DNA of 64,000 nucleotides from an uncultured Gemmatimonadales bacterium (GTDB lineage: Bacteria; Gemmatimonadota; Gemmatimonadetes; Gemmatimonadales; Gemmatimonadaceae): contig CAWKMU010000004.1 in assembly GCA_963850905.1 (NCBI GenBank), forward strand, positions 32,001-96,000. The letters are read 5' to 3'. Of the stretch, positions 8,018-41,749 are shown piece after piece; position 1 is the first letter of the stretch, and every line of letters begins with the position of its first letter. Position numbers and translations under genes: made by a program. The notes below the pieces were generated by a model. It did not search any database. It was not told the DNA's origin and was given only the letters and a program-made list of their open reading frames with translations.

Positions 8018-8289
8018 CGAATCGAAGATCCGCCAGTTCTTCTCGCGCCCGACACGCACCCGCGCCCACGATTCCCGTGTATGTGTGCCGTATCCTGGAC
8101 GCCGCGCGGCAGGGGTTTGCCCGGCGCGGAAAGGTGACCGCCGTTGAAGTCTGGCACGATGCGTACTGCAAGCTCCTACACGGGCGCGGCCCGTGCAATT
8201 GCGATCCCGACATTGTGTTCGCCTACAACGACGGGCGGCGCGCTGATGCCCCACCAATGAAAGCGGCCAACAATGGGGCGCCAGCATGA
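8014..8289 (+). CDS. Small Cys/His-motif hypothetical protein
   Basis: ATGA overlap with the Rep-like gene; motif WHDAYC...GPCNCDPDI. Confidence 0.6.
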   Translation: MTNRRSASSSRARHAPAPTIPVYVCRILDAARQGFARRGKVTAVEVWHDAYCKLLHGRGPCNCDPDIVFAYNDGRRADAPPMKAANNGAPA

Positions 8290-8648
8290 ACCCGGTCGCG
8301 TTCAGCATCGCGAAGCGAGCCGCGTCGTCTGTCTCCATTTGCTACTACGAGAAGGAAGGACTGGGCGGCGTGCCGCCCGCCTGGCTGGAGTGCACCGAGC
8401 CCCTTTGCCCATTCGGTGACACGGGGACAGCGGACGCAAAGGGTCGCTCGGGCCAAGTGGCTCTGGCGCTCCCTTCCAGGGTATCGAGACCAGCCGAGCG
8501 CAATCCTTTAGCTAGTACGCCCTTCCACGCAAGCGGAGCAGAAGTTAGCGTGGCGACCCCGGCCAGATCGACGAACGAGACAAATCTCCCGTCCGGAGTG
8601 GTAGGGCTTCTGGCGTCGATGGCTCGAGCTGAAGTCGCGCCACATTGA
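8286..8648 (+). CDS. Hypothetical protein
   Basis: ATGA overlap with the previous ORF; no recognisable motif. Confidence 0.3.
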   Translation: MNPVAFSIAKRAASSVSICYYEKEGLGGVPPAWLECTEPLCPFGDTGTADAKGRSGQVALALPSRVSRPAERNPLASTPFHASGAEVSVATPARSTNETNLPSGVVGLLASMARAEVAPH

Positions 8649-8756
8649 TGCGGGTGCGGGGCGCTTCGCCGACATCCTGGCGACGGAGATAGTCGTGGGG
8701 CGACGGGCAGTGAGTAGAGATCTGGCTCACTAGGAGGCCGCCTGAGCTCGACAGCG

Positions 8757-9266
8757 TTGGCTCCTTTCACGCTAGCCCAGCTACCAGGCGTTTGGCTCGA
8801 GCGCGCTGATCTACTCGAGCGACACGGTGCCGCACCGCACGCCACTGCGTTGCGCGTCGCGGTCGCTGAGCTCGAGCAAGCGCTGACGAACCGCGCTGGG
8901 TCCATTGGCCGGACTGAGCAGCCGACGCACTCGTCGACGGTACCACCGGAAATCACATGGCGCGAGCGTTTGTGGCTCGTACCCGATGAGACACGTCTGG
9001 GCGTGCGTGAGGTCGCGGAGGCGATGGGTCGATCAACGCACTATGTCCATTGCCACACCGCGGCGGGTGGGGATGGCTTCCGTCTTCCACACCGAAAGGT
9101 CGACGGGCGCCTCGTATTCACGGCGGGCAGCGTACGCAACTGGATCCAGCAATCGGAGTGTGTTATCTCCTCTGGCGTTCCCCTGCCCCTTCGGCTGAGC
9201 GGCACGCCGGTCCGTCGCACGCGGATGCACTCTGCTCGTGGGGGTTCCATTACCACCGGAGCCTAG
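8757..9266 (+). CDS. Excisionase-like HTH DNA-binding protein
   Basis: LGVREVAEAMGRSTHYV...LPHRKVDGRLVFTAGSVRNWI; immediately upstream of the integrase. Confidence 0.7.
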   Translation: MAPFTLAQLPGVWLERADLLERHGAAPHATALRVAVAELEQALTNRAGSIGRTEQPTHSSTVPPEITWRERLWLVPDETRLGVREVAEAMGRSTHYVHCHTAAGGDGFRLPHRKVDGRLVFTAGSVRNWIQQSECVISSGVPLPLRLSGTPVRRTRMHSARGGSITTGA

Positions 9267-9279
9267 AAGGAGATCCCCA

Positions 9280-10506
9280 ATGCGAAGGAAGCGACGACTC
9301 ACTGGACTCGAGCGCCGTGGAGATGGCTATCGGGTCCGCATTCGGATTGGTGGCAAACGCGAGAGTGTCACTGCCGCCACGACCGACCGGCGCACCGCCA
9401 TTGCTTTGATCGAGCAACGCATTGCGGAGCTCGAGCGAGACGCGGAGTGGGAGCGAGTCAGCGCTGCGCTGGGTCAGGTCACGAAGCGTCGCATGCGTGA
9501 GCTCTTCCAGTGGTTCGAGGAGACGCACGTCCCGGCGCTAGCACCGGGAGCTCAGGCGTCATATCGCGACAGCCTGCGCCCGCTCCGCGCCTACTTCGTC
9601 GACACGATCGACAATCCGCTCGCCGATTCGATCGAGGGACGCCACGTAGACGACTATCTGGCGTGGCGGCGCGTGCATTGGCTCGGCGCAGAGCGAAAGC
9701 TTAAGAACACGCCGAAGGCAACGGGCGACACTGCACAGCCAGCTGAGAAGCCCGCGCCGCGTCCGGTCAGCAACCGGACGCTGGCGAAGGATCGGGCCGT
9801 TCTGCATCGCGTCTTCAGGTTGGCCAAGAAGCGTCGGGAGGTTACGCACAACCCAGTCACCGACACCGAGAAGCCGAAAGCGGATCCCCGCAATCCGGTC
9901 ATTTTGAGCGATGACCAGTTCGAGGCGCTGCTCAAGGCGATTGGTGATCGCCCGATGCTCAAGCTGTACGCGCTCATGCTGAACGAAACCGGCATGCGCT
10001 GCGAGTCCGAAGTCCTGTGGCTCCACTGGGGCGACGTCTCGTTCGACGGCGGAAGCATCACCGTCGTGAGTGGTCGCGGTGGGCATTGGACGAAGAGCGG
10101 CAAAGGTCGCGTGGTACCAATGACGCCGCGGCTCGTGGCGGCGCTCCGCGAGCACTTCGCACGGTTCCGCTTCAACGTCGCCGACTCACCGTGGATCTTC
10201 TTTCACCAGTTCACCGGCCGGCGCTTCAGCACCGGCGCTCGGATCGCATCACTCCGCGAAGGGTTCCACGCCGCAGCGCGACGGGCGAAGTTACCGCTCG
10301 AGTTTCGGCAACACGATCTTAGGCACCGCCGAGTGACGACGTGGCTCGCCGCGGAGAAGTCGCCGGTCAAGGTGATGAAGGCGCTGGGGCACTCCGATCT
10401 CAAGGTGACGATGGGGTACTACAGCTTTGTGTCGGACGACCTCAAGTCACTCGTCGAGTCGTGTCCGACGCCTCAGCACCTGCGCGAGACAGCGAGCAGC
10501 GCGTGA
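9280..10506 (+). CDS. Tyrosine recombinase/integrase
   Basis: TGMR, TKSGK, HDLRHR, LGHSD, GYY catalytic residues; AAGGAG RBS before ATG 9280. Confidence 0.95.
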   Translation: MRRKRRLTGLERRGDGYRVRIRIGGKRESVTAATTDRRTAIALIEQRIAELERDAEWERVSAALGQVTKRRMRELFQWFEETHVPALAPGAQASYRDSLRPLRAYFVDTIDNPLADSIEGRHVDDYLAWRRVHWLGAERKLKNTPKATGDTAQPAEKPAPRPVSNRTLAKDRAVLHRVFRLAKKRREVTHNPVTDTEKPKADPRNPVILSDDQFEALLKAIGDRPMLKLYALMLNETGMRCESEVLWLHWGDVSFDGGSITVVSGRGGHWTKSGKGRVVPMTPRLVAALREHFARFRFNVADSPWIFFHQFTGRRFSTGARIASLREGFHAAARRAKLPLEFRQHDLRHRRVTTWLAAEKSPVKVMKALGHSDLKVTMGYYSFVSDDLKSLVESCPTPQHLRETASSA

Positions 10507-10516
10507 TTCGATCCGA

Positions 10517-10539
10517 ATGGGACCACGGATGGGACCACG
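10517..10539 (+). repeat. Direct repeat ATGGGACCACG x2, probable integrase arm-type sites
   Basis: Copies at 10517-10527 and 10529-10539, between the integrase stop and the tRNA. Confidence 0.6.
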
Positions 10540-10593
10540 CCACCCCACACGGCGTCCCCCGAACGATGTATCTTGTACTGCAGCAACACCTTG

Positions 10594-10678
10594 GGAGGGC
10601 TGGCAGAATGGCTAATGCACCGGTCTTGAAAACCGGCGGGCCGGAAGGCCCTTGCAGGTTCGAATCCTGCGCCCTCCG
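10594..10678 (+). tRNA. tRNA-Ser(UGA)
   Basis: Acceptor GGAGGGC/GCCCTCC, anticodon arm CCGGT-CTTGAAA-ACCGG, long variable arm, GCAGG-TTCGAAT-CCTGC, discriminator G, no encoded CCA. Confidence 0.97.
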
Positions 10679-10711
10679 TTGAACCTGCGCCATTCCGACT
10701 GACGAGGAGAG

Positions 10712-12180
10712 CCCAGAGTCAATCGGTCGTCGCAACGGTTTGTGTGTGTGAGAGTAACAGCTCGTTCAGCGCTTCGGCAGGCGTTCTCCAGCCGAGCGTC
10801 TTGCGCGGTCGCGTGTTCAGCGTGAGCGCGACCGCAGCCACATCAGGGGCGTTGTGCGCGCTCAGATCCGTGCCCTTTGGGAAGTACTGCCGCAATAGTC
10901 CGTTCGTATTCTCGTTCGTCCCCCGCTGCCAGGGACTCTGCGGATCGCAGAAGTAGACCGCGAGCCCCGTATCAACGCGTAGTTGTGCGTGCTGTGCCAT
11001 CTCTGCCCCTTGATCCCACGTCAGCGACCGCCGCAGTTGGGCGGGTAGTGTCTGGATCGCGCGCGTGATCGCATCACGCACCGCCGGAGCACCGTGCCCG
11101 GCGAGCGCGGGCCCGTTCTTTGTGTCGGTCGTGCGCGCGCCAGCCGCGTGGCCCCGCATGCGCGGGAGGTGGAGCAGTAGCGTGAAGCGTGTAGTGCGCT
11201 CGACCAACGTGCCGATGGCGGAGCTGTCGAGGCCTAGGATCAGATCGCCCTCCCAGTGCCCCGGCACCGCGCGGTCGTCCGCCTCGGCTGGTCGAGCGCT
11301 GATCAGCAGGTCGGACGTGACAAAGCCTCTGCCCGCGGCCCGTGTGCGGGCACGCGGCACGCGCAACGCCCGGCCCGTGCGTAAGCAGGCGGTCAGCTCG
11401 CGACGGAGCGCGCCGCGGCCCTGGACGTAGAGTGCCTGGTAGATCGCTTCGTGGCTGATGCGCATGGTGGGATCCTCCGGGAAGTCGACGGGGAGCCGAT
11501 GCGCGATCTGCGCCGGACTCCACGCGCGACCCCATTGCCGGTGCTGCCGACGCCCGTGCCTGCGGCCCCTCCACGGCACCGCCGGCCCGCGCGCCGCCGC
11601 GCCGTCCGGCGCCGTGATCACACCCGCGAGGCGGTCCTGCACATACTGCCGGAGCCGCGCGTCTGTCGCCAGCTTCGCCGGCTTCGGGCGGCGGCCCGCC
11701 CGGTCGGCGTGCCACTGCGCCGTGGTCGCACGGTAGTCGAGCGCGCCACCACGGGTCGCCGCATTCCGGCGCAGCTCGCGCGAGATGCTCGAGGGCGCGC
11801 GCCCAAGCTGGCGGGCAATCTCGCGGACGCCGTAGTGGTGGGCGTGGAGGAGCGCCAGCTGCTCGCGCTCGGCGAAGGATAGATAGCGCCCCGACAGCGG
11901 CGACGCGGATGGGGCGAGATGTGACGGCGGCATGCCTCCAGCTTGTCGGAACCAGCGTGCCCCGACCACCCACGAGACTCGCGCATCGGCAACCGCGGTC
12001 TCGGAGTAGCAGCCGCGGGCGATAGCGCCCCAGAACCGCTGCCGGTCCTCACGCCGCCCGACCGGCGGGCGGCCCAGTGAATGCAGCTTGCCACGTCCAG
12101 ACCGATCCGAGCGCCGTCGCCTCGGTGCTGTCATCGCAACCTCCTCGGTGAGAGTGTTGCGACGACCAATTGAATCCACC
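10712..12180 (-). mobile_element. IS30-family insertion sequence, copy 2
   Basis: Same ends as copy 1; target duplication GAG (10709-10711 and 12181-12183); one difference noticed (C2456 vs T11536). Confidence 0.95.
10719..12134 (-). CDS. IS30-family transposase
   Basis: Identical to copy 1 except for one R/Q substitution. Confidence 0.95.
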   Translation of the reverse strand: MTAPRRRRSDRSGRGKLHSLGRPPVGRREDRQRFWGAIARGCYSETAVADARVSWVVGARWFRQAGGMPPSHLAPSASPLSGRYLSFAEREQLALLHAHHYGVREIARQLGRAPSSISRELRRNAATRGGALDYRATTAQWHADRAGRRPKPAKLATDARLRQYVQDRLAGVITAPDGAAARGPAVPWRGRRHGRRQHRQWGRAWSPAQIAHRLPVDFPEDPTMRISHEAIYQALYVQGRGALRRELTACLRTGRALRVPRARTRAAGRGFVTSDLLISARPAEADDRAVPGHWEGDLILGLDSSAIGTLVERTTRFTLLLHLPRMRGHAAGARTTDTKNGPALAGHGAPAVRDAITRAIQTLPAQLRRSLTWDQGAEMAQHAQLRVDTGLAVYFCDPQSPWQRGTNENTNGLLRQYFPKGTDLSAHNAPDVAAVALTLNTRPRKTLGWRTPAEALNELLLSHTQTVATTD

Positions 12181-12304
12181 GAGGACACAAATAGCACCTT
12201 CGGTGCAGTAGCGTCACCCCGGCGCGCCTGCGTATGTCGTGAACGGGGCGGGCCCGCGCGTGGAGACGCCCGCCTGCCTGTTCGCCAGGCAATCGAGGTG
12301 GAGC

Positions 12305-12619
12305 ATGCACAAGCAACACGGTCTTCGCGGTGCGTTTGTCGCGTTGGCGGCAGTGGCGGCGCTTGCTTGGCCCGCCCTGTCACAAGCCCAGGTGTATGTC
12401 AGGGTGGGACCGCCTCCGCCGCCGCATCAGGTCGTCGTCGTGCGTCCCGGGCCCGCCTACGTCTGGACGCCCGGGTACCAGTCGTGGAGCGGAGGGCGGT
12501 ACGTCTGGGTGCCTGGGCGCTGGCGGATGCCGCCTGCCGGCTACCGCGTGTGGGTCGCCGGCCGCTGGGTCGCGAGCCCGCGGGGCTGGTACTGGGTCAG
12601 CGGCCACTGGGCGAGGTAG
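12305..12619 (+). CDS. Secreted YXWGXW (WxxGxW)-repeat protein
   Basis: Signal peptide, PPPPP, repeats YVWTPGYQSW, YVWVPGRW, VWVAGRW, YWVSGHW. Confidence 0.9.
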   Translation: MHKQHGLRGAFVALAAVAALAWPALSQAQVYVRVGPPPPPHQVVVVRPGPAYVWTPGYQSWSGGRYVWVPGRWRMPPAGYRVWVAGRWVASPRGWYWVSGHWAR

Positions 12620-27175: not shown

Positions 27176-27901
27176 CTAGGTTTTTCGCACCACCGCCAGC
27201 TCCTTGTCATTGAACGGCACCGTCTCGACCACCTGCGCCGTCGGCCCCCAGAGCGCAGTATAGGCGGAGAGCGGTCGCGGCTTCTCGATGCGATTGAGCC
27301 GGAGTTTGGTCGTGAGCGAGGTGCTCGCGCGAGGGTCCCAGTAGGTCACGAGGAACGTGCCGCCGGGCGCCAACGCCCGCCACACGTTCTGCATCGCGCG
27401 AGCAAACGCGACGTCCTCCGTGATGTGCTGGGTCACGTCGATCATCATCGCAAGCGCGAAATGCGCAGGGGGGAGCACGATGTCCCCGGCGTCGCCCTGC
27501 ACGAAACGGAACTGCGGGTATCGCTTCGCGAGTGTCGCCACGGAGATCGGCGTGATGTCGTTGCCCGTGTAGTCGCGCACGCCTCGGTTCATGAGGTACT
27601 CCGTCCAGAAGCCGACGCCGCATCCGATCTCCAACACGCGCGTCGCCGGCCCGACCTCGACGCCGTGTCGCGCCAGCTGGGCGTCAATGATTGCGCCTTT
27701 GGCCTCGTACATCCGGCGGTTGGCTTCTTCGCTGAGCCGAAAGTGCCCCACCCCCCGCAGGTCGAACGATTCGGTCAATACCTCGTTCCAGAATTCGCGG
27801 GGCCGGTACCGGAACAGCATCTGGGCGTAGATCCGCAAGCTGCGCATGCGCGAAAAATAGCCGACATCAAAGGATTCTGTGGACGCGACCCGGCCCCGCA
27901 T
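27176..27901 (-). CDS. Class I SAM-dependent methyltransferase
   Basis: RVLEIGCGVG, FVQGDAGD, RALAPGG; start inferred. Confidence 0.85.
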   Translation of the reverse strand: MRGRVASTESFDVGYFSRMRSLRIYAQMLFRYRPREFWNEVLTESFDLRGVGHFRLSEEANRRMYEAKGAIIDAQLARHGVEVGPATRVLEIGCGVGFWTEYLMNRGVRDYTGNDITPISVATLAKRYPQFRFVQGDAGDIVLPPAHFALAMMIDVTQHITEDVAFARAMQNVWRALAPGGTFLVTYWDPRASTSLTTKLRLNRIEKPRPLSAYTALWGPTAQVVETVPFNDKELAVVRKT

Positions 27902-27973
27902 GCCACGCCGGTGCCCAATCCGGGTCCTGCGTCCCGAGTCCCGGATTCCACTCGTTATGCTACACTGAGAGCC

Positions 27974-28489
27974 ATGATCGAAACGCCTGCCCGCGAGCAT
28001 GACCCCGGCTATCGCCTCCGTACGCACGCACCCGGCGACATGGGCTGGATCGTCCATCGACACGGCGTGCTCTATGCGCACGAATATGGCTGGGACATGC
28101 GGTTCGAAGCGCTGGTCGCGCGCATCGTGGCCGACTTTATCATGGAATACGATCCTGCACGCGAGCATTGCTGGATCGCGGAGCGCAACGGCGCCAGAGT
28201 CGGATCCGTCTTTCTCGTCAAAGATCCAGACGCCGCCGACACGGCACGTTTGCGGCTCCTACTCGTCGAGCCGGAAGCCCGCGGACTGGGAATAGGCAGG
28301 CGACTGGTCGATGAGTGCGGCCGCTTTGCCCAGTCGAAGGGCTACCGCCGGATCACTCTGTGGACCAACAACGTGCTCCATTCGGCTCGCCGCATCTATG
28401 AAGCGGCAGGTTACCGACTCATCCGGGAAGAGGCACACAACAGCTTCGGCCCCGATTGCGTCGGTCAAACCTGGGAGCGGATCCTCTAA
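27974..28489 (+). CDS. GNAT-family acetyltransferase
   Basis: ARLRLLLVEPEARGLGIGRRLV, ARRIYEAAGY. Confidence 0.9.
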   Translation: MIETPAREHDPGYRLRTHAPGDMGWIVHRHGVLYAHEYGWDMRFEALVARIVADFIMEYDPAREHCWIAERNGARVGSVFLVKDPDAADTARLRLLLVEPEARGLGIGRRLVDECGRFAQSKGYRRITLWTNNVLHSARRIYEAAGYRLIREEAHNSFGPDCVGQTWERIL

Positions 28490-29119: not shown

Positions 29120-29474
29120 AGAGAAGGATATCGGCAGCTCGGCCCAATTCCTCCGTTTGGTCTCACCCCACCCCGGAAGCCGACTCGAGATGTCCGCCGG
29201 ATGTTTCGCCGCCGGACGACAAACGACTCAGGGTCAGGGTGTCGGTCCGCCACCCGGTTGATGCGACTGGACTGTGGCGGCGCCGCATCGATTCATCACG
29301 TGGCGTAACCCCACGCGGCCACTCGGATGCCCCCATACCCTGTCGAGGAGGAAATAACCACCGAGTGCGGTTGGGCCTGCTGATTGCAGGACGACGGACG
29401 CCATGCCCTCGAACGGCGGCGCTTCCGCAGTGACGTTCCCTTCTCATCAAGCGCCCCGCGAAGCGGGAGGCGAC

Positions 29475-30104
29475 GTGATGATCGGGGGGACGCATCCCAA
29501 TGTCGCGGGCGACACCGCAGCATCACTCATGACCGATCGGCAGCCCGTCGATCTGAACGACGTGATGGTGGGGCGGCGTTCATGCCGGTCCTTTGGCCCG
29601 ACCCCGGTTTCGGATACGGTCATCGCCTCGTTGCTCGATCTCGCGCGGCATGCGCCATCCTCGATGAATGGCCAGCCGTGGCACTTCCTCGTGGTACGAG
29701 AGTGCGAGAGCAAGGCACGCCTCGCCGAGATCAAGAATCACTATTGCCCGGCGGCCAAACAGCAGTACCGGGCTGACTTTCTCGCCGATACCCCTGCGGT
29801 CGTCGTGGTCTGCGTCGACCTGGCCCGGTCCTTTGGCCGGCACCTCGAGGACGGCGTCCTGGCGGCGTTCTCCATCATGCTGGCGGCGACTCGCCACGGT
29901 CTTGGCACCGTCTACCTCTCCGCGCTAAGCGCCGAGGAGCCCGGTCTGACCGCCGACATTCGTCAGCTGTTCGCGATTCCCGATTCGATTCTGCCGGTCT
30001 CGCTCATCCCGCTTGGCTATCCCACCGGAGAGGCCGACGTGAAGGTCCTTCGCCCTCTTCAGGACATGATCCATTATGACCGCTTCGGCTGTCCGAACCT
30101 CTGA
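29475..30104 (+). CDS. Nitroreductase-family flavoprotein
   Basis: RRSCRSF, APSSMNGQPWHF, GLGTVY, LGYP; GGAGG RBS before GTG 29475. Confidence 0.9.
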   Translation: MMIGGTHPNVAGDTAASLMTDRQPVDLNDVMVGRRSCRSFGPTPVSDTVIASLLDLARHAPSSMNGQPWHFLVVRECESKARLAEIKNHYCPAAKQQYRADFLADTPAVVVVCVDLARSFGRHLEDGVLAAFSIMLAATRHGLGTVYLSALSAEEPGLTADIRQLFAIPDSILPVSLIPLGYPTGEADVKVLRPLQDMIHYDRFGCPNL

Positions 30105-31362
30105 TCGCCGGGGCCTGGCGTACGGCCCCGCGTCCGACGCGGCCGTTGCCGTCCCGGCCAGCCGCACGCGGTCCCAGCTCGCGGACTGGATCGATCGCGA
30201 CGTCCCTGCGACACAGAGCATCGTCCTTCGATACCGCCACGCGTTTGCATTCGGCGAGCCGTCCGTCGACCGACTGTTCAAGGACCTGCTCGCCGCCGCC
30301 AGCATTCGTGAAGGCGCCCGCATCGTCCCGCTCGTCCGCTACAAGGGAGTGGATATCTGGCTCATGGACGAGACGTCCATGATGCACAGCCGGACGCTCA
30401 AGTCCATCGACGGATGCGTCACCACCGCGCGCTGCAAGCTCGGCGGGGTGGACCGCGTGGTGCTCGAGACAGGCGGCAACACGGGCTCGGCGCTCACCGC
30501 TTATGGAACCCGCTGCGGACTCGATACCTATTGCTTCGTCCCCGCCGAAAATCTCTCGCTGCTCGACAGTAAAGCGTTTGCCTCACCCCGCGCCCACCTG
30601 GTCGCCGTCGAGGACCCCGGATCGGTCAAGCCGGCGGCGCGAGCGTTCGGTGAAATGCACGGCCTCACACACATCCCAAAGGTTGCCTGGCGCTACAATG
30701 CGTCGCGCTTTCGCGGGATGCTCATCCTGGAACACGGTCTCGAGGACGGTCGCTTCGACTGGATCGCGCAAAGCATCAGCGCCGCCTTCGGTCCAATTGG
30801 GATCTATTGGACGCTCCGGCATTTCGGCGCGAAGGGCGGCCGTTTGCCGCGCTTCCTCGGCGTTCAGCAGCGAGCGAATTGCCCGATGTACCGGTCGTGG
30901 GCCGGCCGACGCAAGACGCTCCGCGCCACGACGCTCACATCGACGAGCGGCCTGCTCGCCCGGACAATGTACGATGTCAAGCCTCACACATATGGCACGT
31001 ACCGCGAGCTCGTCGGCCTGTTGGAGGAAACCAGAGGCGAGTTGCTCACGGTCGACCACGCCGAATTCGACCGATTCCTGACCACTGATCTCGGCGGGCA
31101 ATCGGTGCGCGAGTTGCTCGTGGCGCTCAGTATCGACGTCGGCCAGAGCGTGGTCGAGAAAACGGGGCTCATGGCACTGGCCGGCACACTCAAGCTCATC
31201 GATGCCGGTGAGGTACCCCGCGGGAAGCGTATCCTGTGCTGCCTGACGAGTGGCATCCCAACCGGCGACGGACAAGCGACCCCTGAGTTCACGATTCGGA
31301 ATCTCCACAGTGTCCTCGGCGACTACAGCGAGCAGGTGATGCAGGTCGACGCGCGTGCGTGA
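30076..31362 (+). CDS. PLP-dependent fold-type II enzyme (threonine synthase-like)
   Basis: SRTLKSIDG (PLP Lys, cf. TGSFKDRG), ETGGNTGSAL, RFLGVQ, CCLTSG. Confidence 0.75.
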   Translation: MTASAVRTSDRRGLAYGPASDAAVAVPASRTRSQLADWIDRDVPATQSIVLRYRHAFAFGEPSVDRLFKDLLAAASIREGARIVPLVRYKGVDIWLMDETSMMHSRTLKSIDGCVTTARCKLGGVDRVVLETGGNTGSALTAYGTRCGLDTYCFVPAENLSLLDSKAFASPRAHLVAVEDPGSVKPAARAFGEMHGLTHIPKVAWRYNASRFRGMLILEHGLEDGRFDWIAQSISAAFGPIGIYWTLRHFGAKGGRLPRFLGVQQRANCPMYRSWAGRRKTLRATTLTSTSGLLARTMYDVKPHTYGTYRELVGLLEETRGELLTVDHAEFDRFLTTDLGGQSVRELLVALSIDVGQSVVEKTGLMALAGTLKLIDAGEVPRGKRILCCLTSGIPTGDGQATPEFTIRNLHSVLGDYSEQVMQVDARA

Positions 31363-32296
31363 GACCGGGCCGGCAGTCGCGCTGCGCGACGTCACGCTTC
31401 GCGAAGGACTCGACACCCCCGGTGTCGCCTTCACGAGAAGTCAGCGAGCAACAATTGCCCGCGCCCTTGCTACTGCTGGCATTCGTGAGCTCGAGGTGGT
31501 CGCACCGAGCCGCGTCCGGGCCGACGTCGGGATCGCCGCCGGCATCCGTGATATCGGCACGCCGGTCCGGCTGACGGGCTTGATCTATGCTTTCGCACCA
31601 ACGGCGGAACAAGACGTGTGCGCGACGGTCGGCGTGTTGGATCACATCGACCTGTTGGTGCCACTCGCCGCAGCGCGCGGACCGGCGAGCACCGATGCGA
31701 AACGCGACCGTCTCCTCGAGGTGCTTGCGATGGCGCGCAACGTGGGTGCAGAGACGGGTGTCGGCTTTCCACACGCCACCCAGGTGGAACCATCGATCGT
31801 CGCCGAGCTCGCGGCGGCGGCCGCGGCCGCTGGCGCGACGCGCGTGACCATCTACGACACCAATGGCAGTGCAACGCCGGCCACCGTCCGATCCCTCGTT
31901 GCCGCGGTCGGCCGGGGCGTCGCCATCGACATCTTTTACCACGGCCACAATGACCTGGGGCTCGCAACCGCCAATGCCCTGGCGGCTGTAGATGCCGGCG
32001 CGGATGGGCTCGACGTCACGGTGAACGGCCTCGGTGATCGCGCAGGCAACGCGTCGCTGGAGCAGGTTGCGCTCGCCCTCACCCTCGCGGGCCGACACAC
32101 CGGCGTCGTGCTCACCGAGCTCCAGGCACTCTCACTCGTGGTCGAACGAGAAAGCGGTGTCCCGATCTCGCCACTCGCACCGGTGGTGGGCCGCTTCGCC
32201 GTCAGGCACCGATCTCCTGCCCATCTGCCCCATCCCGAGCTGTTCGAGGCATACGATCCGGCGTTAGTCGGCGTGGCACGCACGCTCGATGCCTAG
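31355..32296 (+). CDS. DRE-TIM metallolyase, homocitrate/isopropylmalate synthase-like (HMGL-like domain), no regulatory domain
   Basis: DVTLREGLDTPG, IYDTNG, HGHNDLGLATAN, NGLGDRAGNASLE. Confidence 0.85.
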   Translation: MRETGPAVALRDVTLREGLDTPGVAFTRSQRATIARALATAGIRELEVVAPSRVRADVGIAAGIRDIGTPVRLTGLIYAFAPTAEQDVCATVGVLDHIDLLVPLAAARGPASTDAKRDRLLEVLAMARNVGAETGVGFPHATQVEPSIVAELAAAAAAAGATRVTIYDTNGSATPATVRSLVAAVGRGVAIDIFYHGHNDLGLATANALAAVDAGADGLDVTVNGLGDRAGNASLEQVALALTLAGRHTGVVLTELQALSLVVERESGVPISPLAPVVGRFAVRHRSPAHLPHPELFEAYDPALVGVARTLDA

Positions 32297-35090
32297 CGAC
32301 GCCACCGACACGTCGGCGGGACCGTCGATCGCCCGCATGCCAGTAGCGGACACGGCGCACAATGGTGCGGTGAGCAGAACGGTGCCCCTGACGGTCGAAC
32401 AGTCGATCTCGCGGTGCTTCGAGCGCCAGGCAAGACGCTACGCCTCGCGCACCGCGGTAGTTGGCGCGAATGCGGCCCTGACGTACGCGCAACTCAATGC
32501 ATGGGCCAATCGGTGGGCTCGGGGGCTGCTGGCGCACTCCAACACGCCGTCGCAGCTCGTCGCAATCCTGCTTCCCAAGGATGCCGCGCTATTCGCTGCG
32601 ATTCTCGGCACGCTGAAGGCCGGTAAGGCGTACGTCGTGCTCGATCCGTCGCATCCGGCGCACCGTCTGGCAACCCTGCTCGACGACGCTGGCACCGGGA
32701 CCACGATCGTCACCGACCGAGAGTTGGAGTCGACTGCACGCGAGCTCGCCGGCTCCACGTCGTCGCGTCATCAGGTCCTGCGCATCGACGACCCTGGACT
32801 CGACGAGCATGCCGCGTCCGATCTGGAGTTTACCCCAACCAGCGACGCGTTGGCATACCTCATCTATACCTCGGGATCCACCGGCACCCCGAAGGGGGTG
32901 ATGCAGACGCACGGCAACGTGCTCTCCAACACCAGCCGGCACGTGAAGGCGCTACGCGTGACACACGCAGATCGGCTCACGCTCATCGCTTCGCCAGCCA
33001 CGGGCCAAGCGGCGACCGACATCTACTGCACCTTGCTGACCGGTGCGACAGTGTATCCGGTGGACGTGCGCACCGTGGGCTTCGACCGCCTCGCGCGCTG
33101 GCTCCGTCGTCAAGAGATCACGATCTATCATTCCAGCGCCTCGATGTTTCGGTCGCTGCTCGACGCGCTGGAAGAGACCGACACGATTCCACGTGTGCGC
33201 GTTGTGAAGCTCGGGAGCGAGCAGGTGTACCGGCGCGATGTCGAGCGGGGGCGGCTGCACTTTCCAACGCATTGCGTGTTCGTCAACGCGCTGTCGTCGA
33301 GTGAAGCAGGGGTCATGCGTCAGATACACCTCGAGCATGATGCGCCTCTCGACTTCGGCAGCGTCGTTCCCGTCGGATATCCCGTCGAGCACATCAATGT
33401 GTCGTTGGTGGATGCCGAGCGGCGCCCGGTGCCGCCTGGCGACCCAGGCGAGATCGTCGTGCGCGGCGAATACCTCAGCCCGGGATACTGGAAGCGCCCA
33501 GAGCTGACGCGCGCCGCCTTCGGCTGTGACCCGAGTGGCGGACCGGCTCGATCGTTCTCGACGGGCGACCACGGACGCATCACGCCCGACGGACGGCTGG
33601 TTTACCTGGGACGAAGCGACGACCAGGTGAAGATCAGAGGCTTTCGAGTCGAGACCGCCGAAGTGGAAGCCGCGATTGTCGATCATCCTGCCGTGCGCCA
33701 GGCGGTCGTGCGTGTGCTGCGCGATGACGCGGGCCAGGCCACGTTGGCTGCCTATGTCGTGCCGCGCGAGGGAGCGGCGCTCACCTCCCGCGAGCTGGAC
33801 CGAGTCCTTCGGACCCGGCTTCCGCTGCACATGATCCCCACTGCACTCGCGATCCTGGGTTCGCTCCCGCTCACGACGAGCGGCAAGCTCAATGTGCAGG
33901 CCCTTCCACCGATCAGTCGCTCCCCACGCAGTGGCGGAAGCACCGAGTACAGAAAGCCGCGCACACAGATCGAGATCCTCCTCGCGAACATTTGGGAGGA
34001 GCTGCTGGGCGTCGGTCCCGTGGGTGTGCACGACGACTTTTTTGACCTGGGTGGCCACTCGTTGCTGGCGATCCAGATGATGGATCGGGCGGAAAAAGTG
34101 TGCGGATTGAGAGTGCCGCTATCGACCCTCCTTCGCGGCGCGACCATCGAGCAGTTGACCGCCGAAATGCTCCGATCGGACCCCAACCCGATGGACGCGC
34201 GACTCATCGAGCTGCAGCCCGGCACGGGACTGCGGCCATTCGTGTTCCTGCATGGAGAGTTCAACGGCGGCGGCGTCTATTGCCGGCAGCTCGCCGCGCG
34301 CCTTGGACCCGACCGGCCCTTCGCCGTCATTCCGCCGCATGGACACGACGGTGACGACATCCCGGCAACGATCGAAGCGATGGCCGCGGACCGACTGCAC
34401 GCCCTGCTCGAATACCAGCCCCAGGGTCCATACTTGCTCGGCGGCTATTGCAATGGCGGTCTCGTAGCGTTCGAGATGGCCCGCCAACTCGAGCGGCGGG
34501 GCGCATTGGTCGACCTGCTCGTGTTGGTGGATGCCAGAGCGCTCAACGTCAGGTTCGCATGGCTGCAACGTCTCGTGGCGATCCTTGGGCGAGTGACCGG
34601 TCTCGGCGACCAGGCGCGCTCCGACACCTTCTTCGTCCTGCGATCGCTGGCTATCGCGCTGCACAACGGCCCCCGCACCTTTGGCCGGGAGCTGCTGCAC
34701 CGCGCGCGGCGGGCAGCCCACCGGATGAAAAGCGGGGCGCATGCCTCGGTGCGCCGACGCATTGGGGCCGCGGCCGTGCGGGCACACGACGCGCGCCCGA
34801 TCGACGCCATCTACGATGAGGCGTTCAAGGTGTACCGCGACATCATGGATCGATACGTACCGGCCCGATACGAAGGCCGCGTCGCTCTGTTCCACTCTCG
34901 CGGCATGGCCCAGCGTTCACCGCGCGACGCAACCGCAGGATGGGGCCGGGTCGTGCCGGACCCCAAACTGCATTTCATCCCTGGCGAGCACCAGACTTGC
35001 CTGACGGATCACCTGGACGTCCTCGCGACACAACTATCCGCGGTCCTTGCACAGGTCGACGCGGGGCACCCGGCGTTGCACGAGACATGA
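32289..35090 (+). CDS. Stand-alone NRPS-like protein, A-T-TE
   Basis: A3 LAYLIYTSGSTGTPKG, A8 GRSDDQVKIRGFRVE, T domain DFFDLGGHSLL, TE GYCNGG and PGEH. Confidence 0.93.
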   Translation: MPSDATDTSAGPSIARMPVADTAHNGAVSRTVPLTVEQSISRCFERQARRYASRTAVVGANAALTYAQLNAWANRWARGLLAHSNTPSQLVAILLPKDAALFAAILGTLKAGKAYVVLDPSHPAHRLATLLDDAGTGTTIVTDRELESTARELAGSTSSRHQVLRIDDPGLDEHAASDLEFTPTSDALAYLIYTSGSTGTPKGVMQTHGNVLSNTSRHVKALRVTHADRLTLIASPATGQAATDIYCTLLTGATVYPVDVRTVGFDRLARWLRRQEITIYHSSASMFRSLLDALEETDTIPRVRVVKLGSEQVYRRDVERGRLHFPTHCVFVNALSSSEAGVMRQIHLEHDAPLDFGSVVPVGYPVEHINVSLVDAERRPVPPGDPGEIVVRGEYLSPGYWKRPELTRAAFGCDPSGGPARSFSTGDHGRITPDGRLVYLGRSDDQVKIRGFRVETAEVEAAIVDHPAVRQAVVRVLRDDAGQATLAAYVVPREGAALTSRELDRVLRTRLPLHMIPTALAILGSLPLTTSGKLNVQALPPISRSPRSGGSTEYRKPRTQIEILLANIWEELLGVGPVGVHDDFFDLGGHSLLAIQMMDRAEKVCGLRVPLSTLLRGATIEQLTAEMLRSDPNPMDARLIELQPGTGLRPFVFLHGEFNGGGVYCRQLAARLGPDRPFAVIPPHGHDGDDIPATIEAMAADRLHALLEYQPQGPYLLGGYCNGGLVAFEMARQLERRGALVDLLVLVDARALNVRFAWLQRLVAILGRVTGLGDQARSDTFFVLRSLAIALHNGPRTFGRELLHRARRAAHRMKSGAHASVRRRIGAAAVRAHDARPIDAIYDEAFKVYRDIMDRYVPARYEGRVALFHSRGMAQRSPRDATAGWGRVVPDPKLHFIPGEHQTCLTDHLDVLATQLSAVLAQVDAGHPALHET

Positions 35091-35776
35091 TCTCGGAGCT
35101 GCTCCCGGCCTGCATCCGGGCCATCGAAACGGACGGTGAACCAGTCGCCGCGGATCCATGCATTGAGGAGCTCGCGTCACTCGGGCGAATGGCTGAGGGA
35201 CGACTGCGCGAGTTTCGGCTCGCCCGTCACTGCGCGCGCCGCGCGCTCTTCCAGCTCGGCCTCCCGCCGCGGCCAATCCCCGTAGGCCACGATCGCTGCC
35301 CCATCTGGCCGCACGGGGTCGTGGGCAGCATTACACACTGCTGGGACTATCGTGCCGCCGCGGTTGCCTTTCGCGCGCGTGTGGCTGGCGTCGGCATCGA
35401 CGCCGAGGTGAATGAGCTCCTCCCGCCGTCTACATTGTCGGTCGTCGTATCGCCAGCAGAACGCGAGGCGATCGGGGCGCTGCCACGCATCGGCGTCGCC
35501 TGGGACCGCCTCGTATTCAGCGCAAAAGAAAGCGCGTACAAAGTGTGGTATCCGATCATGCGATCGTGGCTGGATTTCGACGGCGCGCGGATTCACATCC
35601 ACCCCGATCCGACGGGCGGGCATCGCGGGTCGCTCACAGTGCAACTCCTCGCATCGCCACTCGTCGTCGACGATCGCCTCGTAGACCGGCTAGAAGGCCG
35701 CTACGCCGTCGACTCCGGGCGGATCGTCACCGCGATCGCCGTCAACGCCATTCCTTCGGTAGACTCGACCGGGTAG
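35087..35776 (+). CDS. 4'-phosphopantetheinyl transferase (EntD/Npt-type)
   Basis: PIWPHGVVGSITH, GIDAE, FSAKESAYK; ATGA overlap with the NRPS gene. Confidence 0.92.
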   Translation: MISELLPACIRAIETDGEPVAADPCIEELASLGRMAEGRLREFRLARHCARRALFQLGLPPRPIPVGHDRCPIWPHGVVGSITHCWDYRAAAVAFRARVAGVGIDAEVNELLPPSTLSVVVSPAEREAIGALPRIGVAWDRLVFSAKESAYKVWYPIMRSWLDFDGARIHIHPDPTGGHRGSLTVQLLASPLVVDDRLVDRLEGRYAVDSGRIVTAIAVNAIPSVDSTG

Positions 35777-35789
35777 ACAGAGCCATCCC

Positions 35790-36257
35790 ATGACAACGCG
35801 CGAGCACCTCGCCGACGCCCTCGGCTGGCATGAGGCCCACGTGACCTTCGATGACGCGGTCGAAGGCCTTTCGCCCGACCTGCGCGGCCGACGTCCCCCA
35901 GGATTCCCACACTCGCCGTGGGAGCTAGTGGAACACCTCCGGCTCACCCAACACGACCTCCTCGACTTCTGTCGAGACCCGGCGTATGAGGCGCCACCCT
36001 GGCCGGTTGGCTACTGGCCGAATGAGGCCGCGCCCCCGAGACCGCGTGCATGGGACGAGAGCCTGCGAGCCTACCGCGACGACCGCCGAGCATTCCAGGA
36101 GCTCGTGCGGGACACGGCCATCAAGCTGGAGGACCGCATCCCCCATGGCGAAGGCCAGACGTACATACGCGAGGTCCTCCTCGCGATCGACCACGCGGCC
36201 TATCACGTCGGCCAGCTGGTCGCCGTGCGTCAGGCCCTCGGCGCCTGGAAGACGTAG
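35790..36257 (+). CDS. DinB-family protein
   Basis: HSPWELVEHLRL...DHAAYHVGQL. Confidence 0.88.
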   Translation: MTTREHLADALGWHEAHVTFDDAVEGLSPDLRGRRPPGFPHSPWELVEHLRLTQHDLLDFCRDPAYEAPPWPVGYWPNEAAPPRPRAWDESLRAYRDDRRAFQELVRDTAIKLEDRIPHGEGQTYIREVLLAIDHAAYHVGQLVAVRQALGAWKT

Positions 36258-36275
36258 GGGACGGCTACCGCGGCG

Positions 36276-36701
36276 CTACGCTGGAGCCGCAGTTCGGGTC
36301 CCTTGCACGGCTGGACGGACTAGCCGGCTGGCGACGAGAGCGAACAAGCCGAGGATGATGCCCGACAGCAGGCCGATGAGGGGGCCCATCAGGAGCATCA
36401 TGACGCGCGGATGTCGGGCCAGCGGCATCGAAGCCATCATCTGCATTTCCTGCGGGTGCCTGGGCACATACTGATGGAACAGCAGCAGGTGCGCGCCGGT
36501 CACCCACACGCTGTTCGCGAGACCGACCAGCACGCCATGCAAGAAGGGACTGCCACCCCCGAAGCGCGCGATGGCATAGGCCGAGATCAGAAACACGACC
36601 AGCCAGCACACCGGCTCGACGGTGGACGGGATCAAGAAGACCGTGCCGACACCCATGAGGAGACCGAAGAGCGACAGCTGGATGATGAGCTTCGCATTCA
36701 T
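36276..36701 (-). CDS. Four-TM hypothetical membrane protein
   Basis: Hydrophobic segments, ATG start, fills the intergenic gap. Confidence 0.7.
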   Translation of the reverse strand: MNAKLIIQLSLFGLLMGVGTVFLIPSTVEPVCWLVVFLISAYAIARFGGGSPFLHGVLVGLANSVWVTGAHLLLFHQYVPRHPQEMQMMASMPLARHPRVMMLLMGPLIGLLSGIILGLFALVASRLVRPAVQGTRTAAPA

Positions 36702-38891: not shown

Positions 38892-40529
38892 CTAGGGGGT
38901 GTGGATGAGGTGCTCCTCTGCGACCTGCACATCGATGCCAGGATGGTGGTCCGGTTTCGGAGATCCGCTCCCCGGCCCGGGCGGCGTCCCGGGGGGCGGT
39001 GCAGTCGCGGTCCCAGAATGTGGTGTGGTCGTGATAGTCCCGTCCGGGTGAGCCACTTCGACCGTGCCGGTGGAATTCGTGGTCGTGATGGATCCGTCGG
39101 GGTTATTCTCGATCGTCGTCCCGTCATGGGTGATGACTTGGACGTGCCCCCCTGGGTCGTTTGTGGTCACGGTCCCATCGGTGCCGATCGTTCGAGTCGA
39201 GCCGTCCCCGTAGCTGATTGAGAGCGACCCATCCGGGTTGGATTGCGTGACGGAATAGACGGTCCCGTCCGGATTGGTGATGGTAGTGGTCGAGTCTGTG
39301 ACCGTGGCCGTGGACCCGTCCGTGTGAGCGATCTGGACGCTTCCATCCGGGTTGAGCGTCGAGATCGACCCGTCTGGGTTCGTCGACGTGGTGGTCCCGT
39401 CGGGGCTATCGACTTGGGCCGTCCCATTGGGGTTCGTCGTCGTAATCGACCCATTGGGGTTGGCCTGTATCGTCGTCCCATTGGGCGTGGTCAGCGTGGT
39501 CGTGCTGGACCCGGTGGGATCGGTCGTCGTAACGGATCCGTCGGGGTTGGTCGTGGTGCTCGTGCCGTCGGGACTGAACGTGGTCGACGTGGTGATGGTG
39601 GGCTCAGTCGACGGCGCGCTCGTCCCCGTCGCGCCAGAGTCTCCCGACGAGATCGTCGTGTTGGGAAGGGTCGTCGTCGTGCTCCCGTCAGGCGTGGTCG
39701 TTGTGCTGCTCCCATCGGGATACGTGGTGGTGGTCGTCGTCCCGCCCGGGCCGAACGTCGCCTGCACGGTCATCGTGGGCTCGGCGGGGCTGGTGACGCC
39801 AGTCCCGTCGCCTGTACCCGCGGTGGGGTCGCCTTCGACCACGGTCTCCGGCACCGTCGTCGTCGAACTCCCGTCGGATCCCGTCGTGGTGCTGCTCCCG
39901 TCGGCGTTGTACGTCGTCTGCGTGGTCGTCGTGGACGTGGTCCCGTCGGGATTGGTCGTGGTCGTCGTGGTCCCGCCCGGACCGAACGTCGACTGCATGG
40001 TCATGACGGGTTCGTCGCTCGCCTCGGCGGTGCTCGCGCTCGGGTCACCTTCGACCACGGTCTCCGGCACCGTCGTCGTCGAACTCCCGTCGGATCCTGT
40101 CGTCGTGCTGCTCCCGTCGGCGTTGTACGTCGTCTGCGTGGTCGTCGTGGATGTCGTCCCGTCGGGATAAGTCGTCGTAGTCGTGGTTCCGCCCGGACCA
40201 AACGTCGCCTGCATGGTCATCGTGGGATCGGTCGACGGCGCGCCCGGACCGCCCGCGCCTGAACCGCTGCCCGAACCGCCTGAACCCCCTGAACCCCCTG
40301 CGCCCGATCCGGAACCTGCCCCGGCGCCAGAGCCGTCTCCGCTACCCGACCCATCACCCGGGCCCGTTCCATCACCTGTGCCACCATCGCCGGCCATGCC
40401 ACCCATCCCACCCATACCACCCGCGGCGCCCGCGGCGCCCGCGGCGGCACCGAGCGATGGTGCGACGCCAGCGCCCGCTGGGGCGCAGCTCGTGCACCAG
40501 TGCACGATGGAAATCAGCATGTCGATCAT
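38892..40529 (-). CDS. Thr/Gly/Pro/Asp-rich repeat protein (T-x-PDG hairpin repeats)
   Basis: Many NPDG/PDG turns; 72-aa duplicated module; ATG overlaps the PrsW stop. Confidence 0.8.
   Translation of the reverse strand: MIDMLISIVHWCTSCAPAGAGVAPSLGAAAGAAGAAGGMGGMGGMAGDGGTGDGTGPGDGSGSGDGSGAGAGSGSGAGGSGGSGGSGSGSGAGGPGAPSTDPTMTMQATFGPGGTTTTTTYPDGTTSTTTTQTTYNADGSSTTTGSDGSSTTTVPETVVEGDPSASTAEASDEPVMTMQSTFGPGGTTTTTTNPDGTTSTTTTQTTYNADGSSTTTGSDGSSTTTVPETVVEGDPTAGTGDGTGVTSPAEPTMTVQATFGPGGTTTTTTYPDGSSTTTTPDGSTTTTLPNTTISSGDSGATGTSAPSTEPTITTSTTFSPDGTSTTTNPDGSVTTTDPTGSSTTTLTTPNGTTIQANPNGSITTTNPNGTAQVDSPDGTTTSTNPDGSISTLNPDGSVQIAHTDGSTATVTDSTTTITNPDGTVYSVTQSNPDGSLSISYGDGSTRTIGTDGTVTTNDPGGHVQVITHDGTTIENNPDGSITTTNSTGTVEVAHPDGTITTTPHSGTATAPPPGTPPGPGSGSPKPDHHPGIDVQVAEEHLIHTP
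39826..40226 (-). repeat. Intragenic tandem duplication, 216-bp period
   Basis: CCTTCGACCACGGTCTCCGGCACCGTCGTCGTCGAACTCCCGTCGGATCC at 39832 and 40048. Confidence 0.85.
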
Positions 40530-41749
40530 ACGAGTGTCCCCCGTTTCGAAGACCCCGCGGACGGAGAGGGGGCGAGTTGCGCACGGGCGAGCAGCATTGA
40601 TCTGCGCTGTGCCACGTCGGCGGGCAGCTTGAACCACGAGTCCGGGCGCAACAGTTGCAGCCACTCTTCCCGACGAGATACGACCGCGCCGATCGCTCGC
40701 CGTTCAATGTAGAACGCGTAGGCGATGCCCGCGATCAGGAGGAGCGAGGAGGCAAATCCGCCAAGGGTGAGAGCGAGCGCGATGTCCAGGAGCGCGTTGT
40801 CCGAGTGGGCCAGCGCGAGCGCATTGTTGGAGGCGTGCTCGAGGAGCGCGACCAGCACCACCGCAAGCAGTACGAGCTCGGGGCGCTTGAACCGATTTCG
40901 ATACAGGAACGTGAGGCCGATGCCCAGTGCGAGCAGGGCCGAGAATATGAGGTGGCCGCCATGGACCATGGTCGAGCCGGCCACCGTGCTCGATGTCTCG
41001 CTCGGGAAAATCAGCGAGATGACCGGCACGGTGGAGAGGTCAAAGGATCCTCGGCCGAACGTCGCGTTCTCATAGAGGCCGAATCCCGCTCCGGTCCATG
41101 CGCCGAGCAACATGACATCGAGTGCCGACGGCCGGACGGTCGTGCGCTTCAGCGCGACGATGACCACGAATGCCACCGGGATCATCTTGCACAATTCCTC
41201 GGTGAGTGGCACCCAGACACTGACGGCGAGGAGGCTGGACCGGCCGAGTGCTCCGACCACCGGACTGCCAAGAAGCGTCGCAAGTGCGGTCACCGCAAGG
41301 AAGCCGGTCGTTCCGGCGCCGACGAAGGCCCGCCAGTTGAGTGTCCGGACCGAGCCGGCGATCACCATCAGCACGGTGAGGCCCCACAACTGTGCAACGA
41401 GGTCCGTCGCGAACTTCTCGAATCCCCCGGTGTGCGTCAGGTGAGGCAACGCGGCAAGGATGGTCACCGCCGAGATTCCCAAGCCGACGTTCGAAACGAT
41501 CATGAGCACGCGCGCGCGGCTCGGCGCGGACGCCGCTTTGGCCACGTAGGAGAACGCGACCTTGAGCGCGATCGCCGAGCCGATGAGGACAATCACGGTC
41601 GCCGCACCGCTGGGCATCACGCCTGCGGCCCGGGCCACCACCGCCGCGACCGAGAGCGTCACACCCGCCCCGGCAACCATCGCCATGCGCAAGTCGTTGG
41701 TCGCCGCCGACGATTGGGTCATCGGCTCACGGACGGCAGTCGTCATCAT
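40526..41749 (-). CDS. PrsW-family intramembrane protease
   Basis: LTEELCK, GAGFGLYEN, HGGH, LEHASNN; about 10 TM segments. Confidence 0.85.
   Translation of the reverse strand: MMTTAVREPMTQSSAATNDLRMAMVAGAGVTLSVAAVVARAAGVMPSGAATVIVLIGSAIALKVAFSYVAKAASAPSRARVLMIVSNVGLGISAVTILAALPHLTHTGGFEKFATDLVAQLWGLTVLMVIAGSVRTLNWRAFVGAGTTGFLAVTALATLLGSPVVGALGRSSLLAVSVWVPLTEELCKMIPVAFVVIVALKRTTVRPSALDVMLLGAWTGAGFGLYENATFGRGSFDLSTVPVISLIFPSETSSTVAGSTMVHGGHLIFSALLALGIGLTFLYRNRFKRPELVLLAVVLVALLEHASNNALALAHSDNALLDIALALTLGGFASSLLLIAGIAYAFYIERRAIGAVVSRREEWLQLLRPDSWFKLPADVAQRRSMLLARAQLAPSPSAGSSKRGTLV

Follow-up and report, generated by a model that had tools for sequence, protein, structure and literature searches.

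What does the compact operon at positions 29475-36257 of a 64,000-nucleotide stretch of uncultured Gemmatimonadales DNA (assembly GCA_963850905.1, contig CAWKMU010000004.1; this whole stretch is called the window here) make, and do its six genes belong together? An earlier note, made from the sequence alone, had treated all six as one biosynthetic unit, perhaps for a beta-lactone. Our results indicate a real uncharacterised module that is a new form of known chemistry. The first three genes, encoding a nitroreductase, a pyridoxal phosphate (PLP) enzyme and a DRE-TIM enzyme related to homocitrate synthase (HCS) and isopropylmalate synthase (IPMS), are a conserved core cassette, and the nitroreductase belongs to this core. 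Tentatively, and with slightly less than even confidence, we propose that the trio turns O-phosphoserine into a small non-amino acid with several anionic groups. The adjoining enzyme with adenylation (A), carrier (T) and thioesterase (TE) domains is predicted to activate this acid as its adenylate, hold it on the carrier and then either release it or pass it on. The product acid probably contains sulfur. The genes and domains are as follows.

29475-30104, + strand: nitroreductase-family flavin mononucleotide (FMN) enzyme, core gene 1 (PF00881, E 3e-26)
30076-31362, + strand: PLP fold-type II enzyme, core gene 2, 428 aa (PF00291, E 6e-15)
31355-32296, + strand: short HCS/IPMS-like DRE-TIM enzyme, core gene 3, 313 aa (PF00682, E 5e-48)
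32289-35090, + strand: one-module A-T-TE enzyme, the type-A partner, 933 aa, without a condensation (C) domain (PF00501, PF13193, PF00550, PF00975)
32418-33887, + strand: A domain, pocket positions taken from an LgrA alignment
33981-34163, + strand: T domain, Ser591 in LGGHS
34266-35024, + strand: TE domain, with Cys721 as nucleophile (GYCNGG), Asp748 and His901
35087-35776, + strand: EntD/PptT-type phosphopantetheinyl transferase (PPTase)
35790-36257, + strand: DinB-family (DinB_2) gene, outside the cassette

The open reading frame (ORF) check of the window found all six genes present and intact, and their shared direction, coordinates and protein families stand as first described. The junctions from the nitroreductase to the PPTase gene overlap by 29, 8, 8 and 4 nt, and a 13-nt gap precedes DinB. 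Differences between the six genes and their G004 orthologues fall mostly at third codon positions (6/7/45 by codon position for DRE-TIM, 15/17/67 for PLP), as expected under purifying selection. GC content of the operon is within the normal range for the window. A promoter scan returned 0 promoters. Terminator-like sites numbered 5 where 3.3 were expected, every one of them on the - strand, and no RNA runs were listed for 29400-36300.

The case for the cassette rests on two scans. A genome scan seeded with the PLP enzyme gave 59 loci, with 61 of 81 stretches confirmed, and a metagenome scan seeded with the DRE-TIM enzyme contributed a further 80 (the best 80 of 237 confirmed). Because several of the metagenome loci nearly duplicate one another, the counts are not independent. 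Seven further loci (four plus three) with the same type-B cassette, described below, stand outside the counts. Where genome loci had room for the gene, the nitroreductase lay directly upstream of the PLP gene in 52/55 and the DRE-TIM gene downstream in 54/57, the misses for trio adjacency being L007, L027, L056 and L059. The corresponding metagenome figures are 48/48 and 67/67, the latter circular given the DRE-TIM seed. The order of the first three genes is far beyond chance and that of the PPTase and DinB genes is weaker. Thus the proposal of a real, conserved and uncharacterised operon holds for the trio, and the nitroreductase, first suggested as a possible tailoring or self-protection gene, is a core member.

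The 59 genome loci come from 11 named phyla, with seven unassigned, and all are genome bins. Distribution is rare and patchy: the cassette occurs in 2 of 301 genomes of the window's phylum, its own genome included, and the DRE-TIM gene in 4 of 10 genomes of the window's genus. The closest cassettes are those of other Gemmatimonadales, with 92-95% identity for the three core proteins in L001 and 68-74% in L002. Four loci carry broken or rearranged cassettes (L007, L056, L057 and L041, with split PLP or DRE-TIM frames, or DRE-TIM missing or moved), through either decay or assembly errors. In plasmid searches the window PLP enzyme had one weak match, P0293 and the G367 PLP enzyme had none, and P0336 matched only acyl-CoA dehydrogenases. 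No published description of the trio was found in the literature searched, a search with subscription journals and MIBiG outside it.

Which genes follow the trio differs among loci. We counted partners in loci with at least 3 kb after the DRE-TIM gene (45 genome, 37 metagenome). An adjacent nonribosomal peptide synthetase (NRPS; type A) was present in 16/45 genome and 19/37 metagenome loci. Type B, consisting of an ELFV (amino-acid) dehydrogenase, a methyltransferase and/or a B12 radical SAM gene and lying mostly in glycan loci, accounted for 23/45 and 17/37, and 6/45 and 1/37 had neither. A FastTree tree of the joined trio sequences, with 44 rows, shows at least five switches between the A and B labels. 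Because the label switches repeatedly and partners differ among loci, we regard the trio as a module that swaps partners, a mobile building-block module that we saw only in genome bins and metagenomes. The ELFV dehydrogenase was found in 35 type-B loci. Glycosyltransferase, flippase and sulfotransferase genes and others related to them accompany 27/40 type-B versus 6/35 type-A loci, with L072 as one more. Type-B loci also carry PaaK-like ligases, and their methyltransferases give generic methyltransferase matches; no Cys or Bel structure was among the listed structure matches of the type-B ligase and methyltransferase. A motif search of the loci for a stand-alone carrier protein found none. 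Arsenic chemistry was considered and rejected, the type-B methyltransferase consensus lacking a conserved Cys. Recurring around type-B cassettes (e.g. L129:5575-8400 and L089:9841-11026) are SsuA/NMT1-like binding proteins with ABC parts, sulfotransferases, phosphodiesterase/sulfatase-like proteins, paired cupins and a Pfam-less 530-aa family.

The last two genes of the operon have a different history, so that co-occurrence in other genomes extends to the nitroreductase, PLP and DRE-TIM genes and not to these two, and the six genes are not one unit. The EntD-type PPTase has a close homologue in 1/147 other loci, and Sfp-type PPTases occur in six others; it is a local addition to the cassette that probably primes the T domain. 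DinB recurs in 3/147 other loci; all three are close relatives, and in none does it adjoin the cassette as in the window. The gene before it is a pirin gene in G004 and G001, and in G002 it comes after a two-component pair. G001 still has DinB although its nitroreductase, PLP and NRPS genes have been lost, and we reject a tailoring or self-protection role for what is a gene of the flanking backbone; a distant DinB directly after the NRPS in L010 is the contrary case. Deletion of pirin is the most likely reason that DinB adjoins the PPTase gene in the window. In G002 (L150, ~11950-12012) the NRPS runs into the apparent tail of a deleted pirin gene, a deletion scar. At the same site G001 retains an orphan DRE-TIM gene (L148, 9060-10004) without its former nitroreductase, PLP and NRPS companions; the orphan has E17D, H290N and F297L at otherwise near-invariant positions and serves as a natural decay control.

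What might the PLP enzyme do? By sequence and structure it falls in the threonine synthase/cysteate synthase branch (model pLDDT 82.5), with the fold and PLP-lysine site of that branch. The best structural match is the cysteate synthase CapA2 (9K3C; Z 34.7, rmsd 2.8, 357 aligned), followed by threonine synthase (1V7C; Z 33.0). Schiff-base Lys109 is conserved in 97/98 family members, and Arg206, Gln232 and Asp300 in 98/98. Arg206 aligns with the phosphate-binding Arg160 of Thermus threonine synthase. The DxxxQ, PMYxxW and PxxYG segments are common to the PLP enzyme and CapA2; threonine synthase is without them. Threonine synthase models (TIGR00260/PRK) scored only 23-46 bits against cut-offs of 167-358, and the ESM Atlas returned only PALP/cysteate synthase and HMGL clusters. 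True cysteate synthase sequences were found in 0/5 and 0/81 genomes searched. One locus, L023, carries a phosphoserine aminotransferase gene (serC) between the PLP and DRE-TIM genes; that genome has two serC copies, of which this is the second. Its product could supply phosphoserine or deaminate a phosphoserine-like product, and either role points to a three-carbon amino acid whose beta-group is anionic. The earlier note had cast the PLP enzyme as a supplier of a 2-oxo acid or unusual amino acid; it resembles a cysteate-synthase-type replacement enzyme and not a simple 2-oxo-acid supplier. The predicted PLP-DRE-TIM complex scored 0.00, which counts neither for nor against.

The A domain offers a second view of the product. 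Its pocket code in the window is G-Q-T-H-K-G-A-V-M-K, with Lys299 and His278 by LgrA alignment. Asp235, expected of amino-acid-activating domains, is absent in 32/32 cognate A domains (Gly 22, Ala 9, Gln 1), and Gln236 (32/32), His278 and Lys299 (31/32 each) and Thr239 (31-32/32) are conserved. Since Asp235 is missing and the pocket holds Lys299 and His278, the substrate is likely an anionic non-amino acid, in agreement with the proposal of a non-amino-acid loader. In four loci (L005, L047, L063 and L079) the same A-T precedes C-A-T-TE, which suggests that the acid is a starter acyl unit; the three examined have a downstream code of the glycine type. Bimodular variants end in amides, and some of them have no TE. 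Three loci (L043, L051 and L097) instead carry a different acyl-CoA-ligase-type A-T-TE, FadD7-like in L097, with a Ser TE. The window TE has Cys721, present in 22/22 aligned TE domains, together with D/E748 and H901, and is a GxCxG Cys thioesterase of the ObiF type, as suits the release or cyclisation first suggested for it. The Cys TE of ObiF forms the beta-lactone of obafluorin, and a Cys TE allows strained-ring closure. It is not diagnostic of lactone formation, as AB3403 (GWCFGG), not known as a lactone maker, has one too.

The nitroreductase gene starts either at GTG 29475 behind GGAGG (209 aa) or at ATG 29529 (191 aa). Its family-specific residues are Cys91 (93/97), Lys95 and Glu125 (both 97/97). 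In 4 of 19 proteins scanned (P0336, P0340, P0344 and P0355), distant PLP relatives are fused to acyl-CoA dehydrogenase domains, and in G367 a Flavin_Reduct protein replaces the nitroreductase beside the PLP homologue. The flavin partner is exchangeable in wider relatives, and these fusions and pairings indicate that a flavin step goes with the PLP family. Other PLP relatives (P0362, P0373, P0387 and P0389) are fused to ribulose-phosphate epimerase, kinase or RpiB domains.

The DRE-TIM enzyme is nearest to HCS/IPMS by sequence (profile E 1e-53 vs 4e-21 for aldolases) and has ~30% identity and TM ~0.78 to enzymes of the IPMS, HCS and methylthioalkylmalate synthase (MAMS) group (6KTQ, 3RMJ, 6E1J). 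MAMS numbering was transferred through the 6E1J alignment. R16, T169, H196 and H198 are conserved in 123/123 and E17 in 122/123 sequences, corresponding to MAMS Arg89, the metal ligands and Thr257. The base His290 (MAMS His388) is kept in 122/123, with Asn, as in the orphan G001 copy, in the single exception, a pattern suggesting strong selection on this residue. Leu76 matches the IPMS specificity position, the motif GERAGN has become GDRAGN, and 4-5 residues are deleted before the Tyr position. The gene is the only HMGL-like match in genome G000. Superfamily aldolases (4LRT, 4JN6) also match the model well. From the conserved base, the neighbours and the sister cluster described next, we read the enzyme as one that makes a C-C bond at C2 of a 2-oxo acid; the product would be malate-like, and the donor is uncertain. 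The substituted malate-like intermediate first suggested fits the sporadic neighbours AcnA (L043) and a PrpB/isocitrate lyase (ICL)-type lyase (L048), as well as LeuC and LeuD in a sister cluster in G367. That cluster (L158/L162/L163, G367:C3 581-606 kb) contains a full-length HCS-like enzyme, a distant PLP homologue, Flavin_Reduct, B12 radical SAM and ELFV dehydrogenase genes, two methyltransferases, LeuC, LeuD, a PaaK-like ligase and a flippase. Its sister enzyme has 397 aa, with the Gln kept and the Glu and Tyr replaced, and LeuC and LeuD lie nearby.

Gene set, conservation and residues are observed; the enzyme steps below are conditional. The PLP enzyme would eliminate phosphate from O-phosphoserine and attach a nucleophile X to the resulting aminoacrylate, with X-alanine as product. 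For X the leading guess is sulfite, the co-substrate of cysteate synthase, which carries about half of the weight of this proposal; the product would then be cysteate. X-alanine may be deaminated to X-pyruvate by a host aminotransferase in the window organism and by the ELFV dehydrogenase in type-B loci. The DRE-TIM enzyme would hold X-pyruvate on its metal and form a C-C bond at C2, yielding a 2-(X-methyl)malate-type acid, from an acyl donor that may not be acetyl-CoA. The nitroreductase could conceivably tie flavin redox to the PLP step, either by making X or by oxidising or reducing an intermediate. To judge from pocket residues, the A domain would load the acid, and the TE would hydrolyse, cyclise or transfer it to release it; the bimodular relatives would amidate the acid onto an amino acid, Gly by code. 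We favour this route because the trio is invariant across 11 phyla, CapA2 is the best structural match, serC is inserted in L023, and the DRE-TIM residues and the A-domain pocket fit. The aconitase and PrpB/ICL-type lyase beside the cassette, the G367 sister cluster, the type-B ELFV dehydrogenase and the exchangeable flavin partner speak for it as well.

Several observations weigh against it. CapA2 is ahead of threonine synthase by no more than 1.7 Z units and shares 14% identity with the PLP enzyme, the archaeal cysteate synthase model TIGR03844 gives 31.5 bits against a cut-off of 324.9, and the CapA S-N-R-R loop is Y-D-x-x in the PLP enzyme; because this loop is replaced, sulfite need not be the nucleophile. 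The insertions of serC (L023), aconitase (L043) and lyase (L048) are one locus each, and SerC acts on 4-phosphohydroxythreonine too, as the NF003764 name states. G000, an assembly 82% complete, has no tblastn match to the L023 SerC and has homoserine kinase (thrB) beside a second fold-II, threonine-synthase-like gene, which makes phosphohomoserine a real alternative substrate. Further, no LeuC or LeuD genes occur in the 139 family loci, apart from AcnA in L043. In the DRE-TIM family, Asp20 replaces Gln93 and Pro139 replaces Glu227 (MAMS numbering) in 123/123, Phe297 replaces Tyr399 in 122/123, and subdomain II is absent, the chain ending 9-44 residues after Phe297 (mode 17). The last residue of the window enzyme corresponds to residue 317 of Thermus HCS. 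A search of 7998 candidates of 549-2000 aa turned up neither a longer nor a fused form at E<=1e-60, which is weak evidence. The scan patterns included Tyr167, Thr169 and Asp228 and neither Asp20 nor Pro139, so the invariance of these two is no selection artefact. The MAMS mutants Q93A/N and E227A/D have no activity and Y399F has very little (PMC11532901), and truncation into the accessory domain impairs IPMS (PMC9860122); on this basis each of the three replacements, and likewise the absence of subdomain II, would impair known Claisen enzymes. Because Gln, Glu and Tyr are replaced and the family ends before subdomain II, the enzyme is not a canonical IPMS or HCS, and the earlier picture of a plain IPMS making an alkylmalate is not supported.

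These losses raise an unlikely alternative, that the DRE-TIM enzyme is a coenzyme A (CoA)-independent aldolase or enamine-aldol catalyst. It would join a metal-bound 2-oxo acid to pyruvate, 2-oxobutyrate or PLP-released aminoacrylate, the nitroreductase would oxidise or reduce a (cyclic) imine, and the A domain would load the resulting lactone, lactam or ring acid. Precedents are the DRE-TIM aldolases of nikkomycin and rhizocticin biosynthesis and the formation of fusaric acid by a PLP enzyme together with a flavin oxidase, and the good fit of the aldolases 4LRT and 4JN6 agrees with the idea. So does the loss of both CoA-side features, the Gln93 equivalent and subdomain II, in 123/123 (PMC11532901, PMC9860122). 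However, the sequence is nearest to HCS/IPMS, the Claisen-type subdomain-I set His290/Phe297/Glu298 and GDRAGN are conserved, and the G367 sister enzyme keeps the Gln and subdomain II and sits with LeuC/LeuD. Quite improbable is the model of the earlier note, in which the PLP enzyme makes a neutral 2-oxo acid (e.g. 2-oxobutyrate from phosphohomoserine), the DRE-TIM enzyme adds acetyl-CoA to give an alkylmalate, and A-T-TE closes a beta-lactone. It would leave the cysteate-synthase-like loops and the serC insertion unexplained, as an enzyme for a common 2-oxo acid, and the operon has no CysG-, CysE-, CysC- or CysD-like genes. Leu76, thrB in G000, the uniform Cys-type TE and a pocket without Asp235 whose Lys and His suit a dicarboxylate are in its favour; yet AB3403 shares the Cys TE, more than half of scorable loci have no NRPS, and bimodular variants end in amides, some of them having no TE.

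A separate question is the fate of the acid. It is possible, if on the doubtful side, that it ends up as an acyl substituent on a surface glycan or lipid instead of being secreted as a metabolite, with A-T-Cys-TE as a transacylase; this is compatible with the phosphoserine route. The glycan-type genes and PaaK-like ligases of type-B loci point this way, but 29/35 type-A loci show no glycan genes by cluster labels, and none were among the window flanking genes scanned, which encode peptidases, GNAT, methyltransferase and DUF1697 proteins. A beta-lactone could also end the phosphoserine route; overall we consider such a product unlikely.

Elsewhere in the window, the methyltransferase gene at 27176-28168, on the opposite strand, is a backbone gene unrelated to CysG. 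A mobile element (1642-12383), with a MobA/VirD2-like relaxase (4313-6112, - strand), a tyrosine integrase (9238-10503, + strand) and two HTH_38 ORFs, lies ~17 kb upstream of the cassette. Downstream are a PrsW-family protease and, after it, a repetitive protein of 590 aa rich in Thr, Gly and Asp (38892-41749, - strand) and a 1194-aa ORF with no Pfam match at E<=1e-8 (57131-60712, - strand).

The core comprises three enzyme subfamilies with active sites unlike all solved relatives, and the five-gene, 6.3-kb window version is its most compact form for expression. How do they compare with known systems? With the IPMS/HCS/MAMS Claisen branch the DRE-TIM enzyme shares the Arg, the metal Glu/His/His, the Thr and the His base, and its family is a test of the true requirements for Claisen chemistry in the superfamily. 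The PLP enzyme resembles CapA/CapA2 of sulfonolipid synthesis in structure, C-terminal segments and Lys-PLP site and differs in its low identity, its score below the family cut-off and the replaced SNRR loop. Its partners are a flavoenzyme and a DRE-TIM enzyme, whereas that of cysteate synthase is cysteate acyltransferase; it may extend cysteate-synthase-type replacement chemistry. The first CapA/CapA2 step starts from phosphoserine (PMC11211663). A-T-TE has the domain order and Cys nucleophile of the NRPSs ObiF (6N8E) and AB3403 (4ZXH) but no C domain, and its unusual code, G-Q-T-H-K-G-A, and A7 motif, NALSS(T/S)E, differ from those of the amino-acid loaders in the alignment.

The analogy with belactosin and cystargolide fails on several counts, its likeness being limited to an HMGL-like gene beside an AMP-binding gene. 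Those pathways work without an NRPS or T domain and depend on methylation by CysG, lactonisation by the stand-alone ligase CysF and hydrolysis by CysE, and cysA is a dispensable ordinary IPMS (PMC10776993, PMC11427300); taken together with the IOC pathways, they employ a canonical IPMS, 3-isopropylmalate (3-IPM), CysG/F/E and stand-alone ligases (PMC10776993, PMC11427300, PMC9177418). The window operon lacks that methyltransferase/ligase/esterase trio, its AMP-binding enzyme is an A-T-TE with a T domain, and its DRE-TIM enzyme lacks the Gln, Glu, Tyr and subdomain II of a canonical IPMS and keeps the His. As this operon shows, a 'betalactone' call from an HMGL plus AMP-binding pair is unsafe; the antiSMASH rule of that name would probably fire on it.

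Another parallel is phosphonate chain extension. In the pathways of FR-900098 (FrbC/FrbA), pantaphos (HvrC/HvrDE) and phosphinothricin, an HCS-like enzyme extends a heteroatom-pyruvate, and aconitase or LeuCD, flavin reductase and B12 radical SAM genes lie nearby. The window differs in having no phosphoenolpyruvate (PEP) mutase motif, with entry by a PLP replacement enzyme instead. No PEP mutase was found in the operon or among the 40 + 46 neighbour proteins scanned, a set leaving out some singletons, except for one PrpB-type lyase: the L048 candidate (PF13714) carries the PrpB-type RRCGH motif and was rejected. In its fullest form, which we regard as unlikely, the trio would be a portable sulfur counterpart of phosphonate chain extension, running from phosphoserine through cysteate and sulfopyruvate to a 2-sulfomethylmalate-type acid. 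A new DRE-TIM subfamily would make the bond without Gln, Glu or subdomain II, all considered essential, and in uncultured bacteria of 11 phyla the product would serve both as a Cys-TE-released metabolite (possibly a beta-lactone or anhydride) and as an acyl group on glycans.

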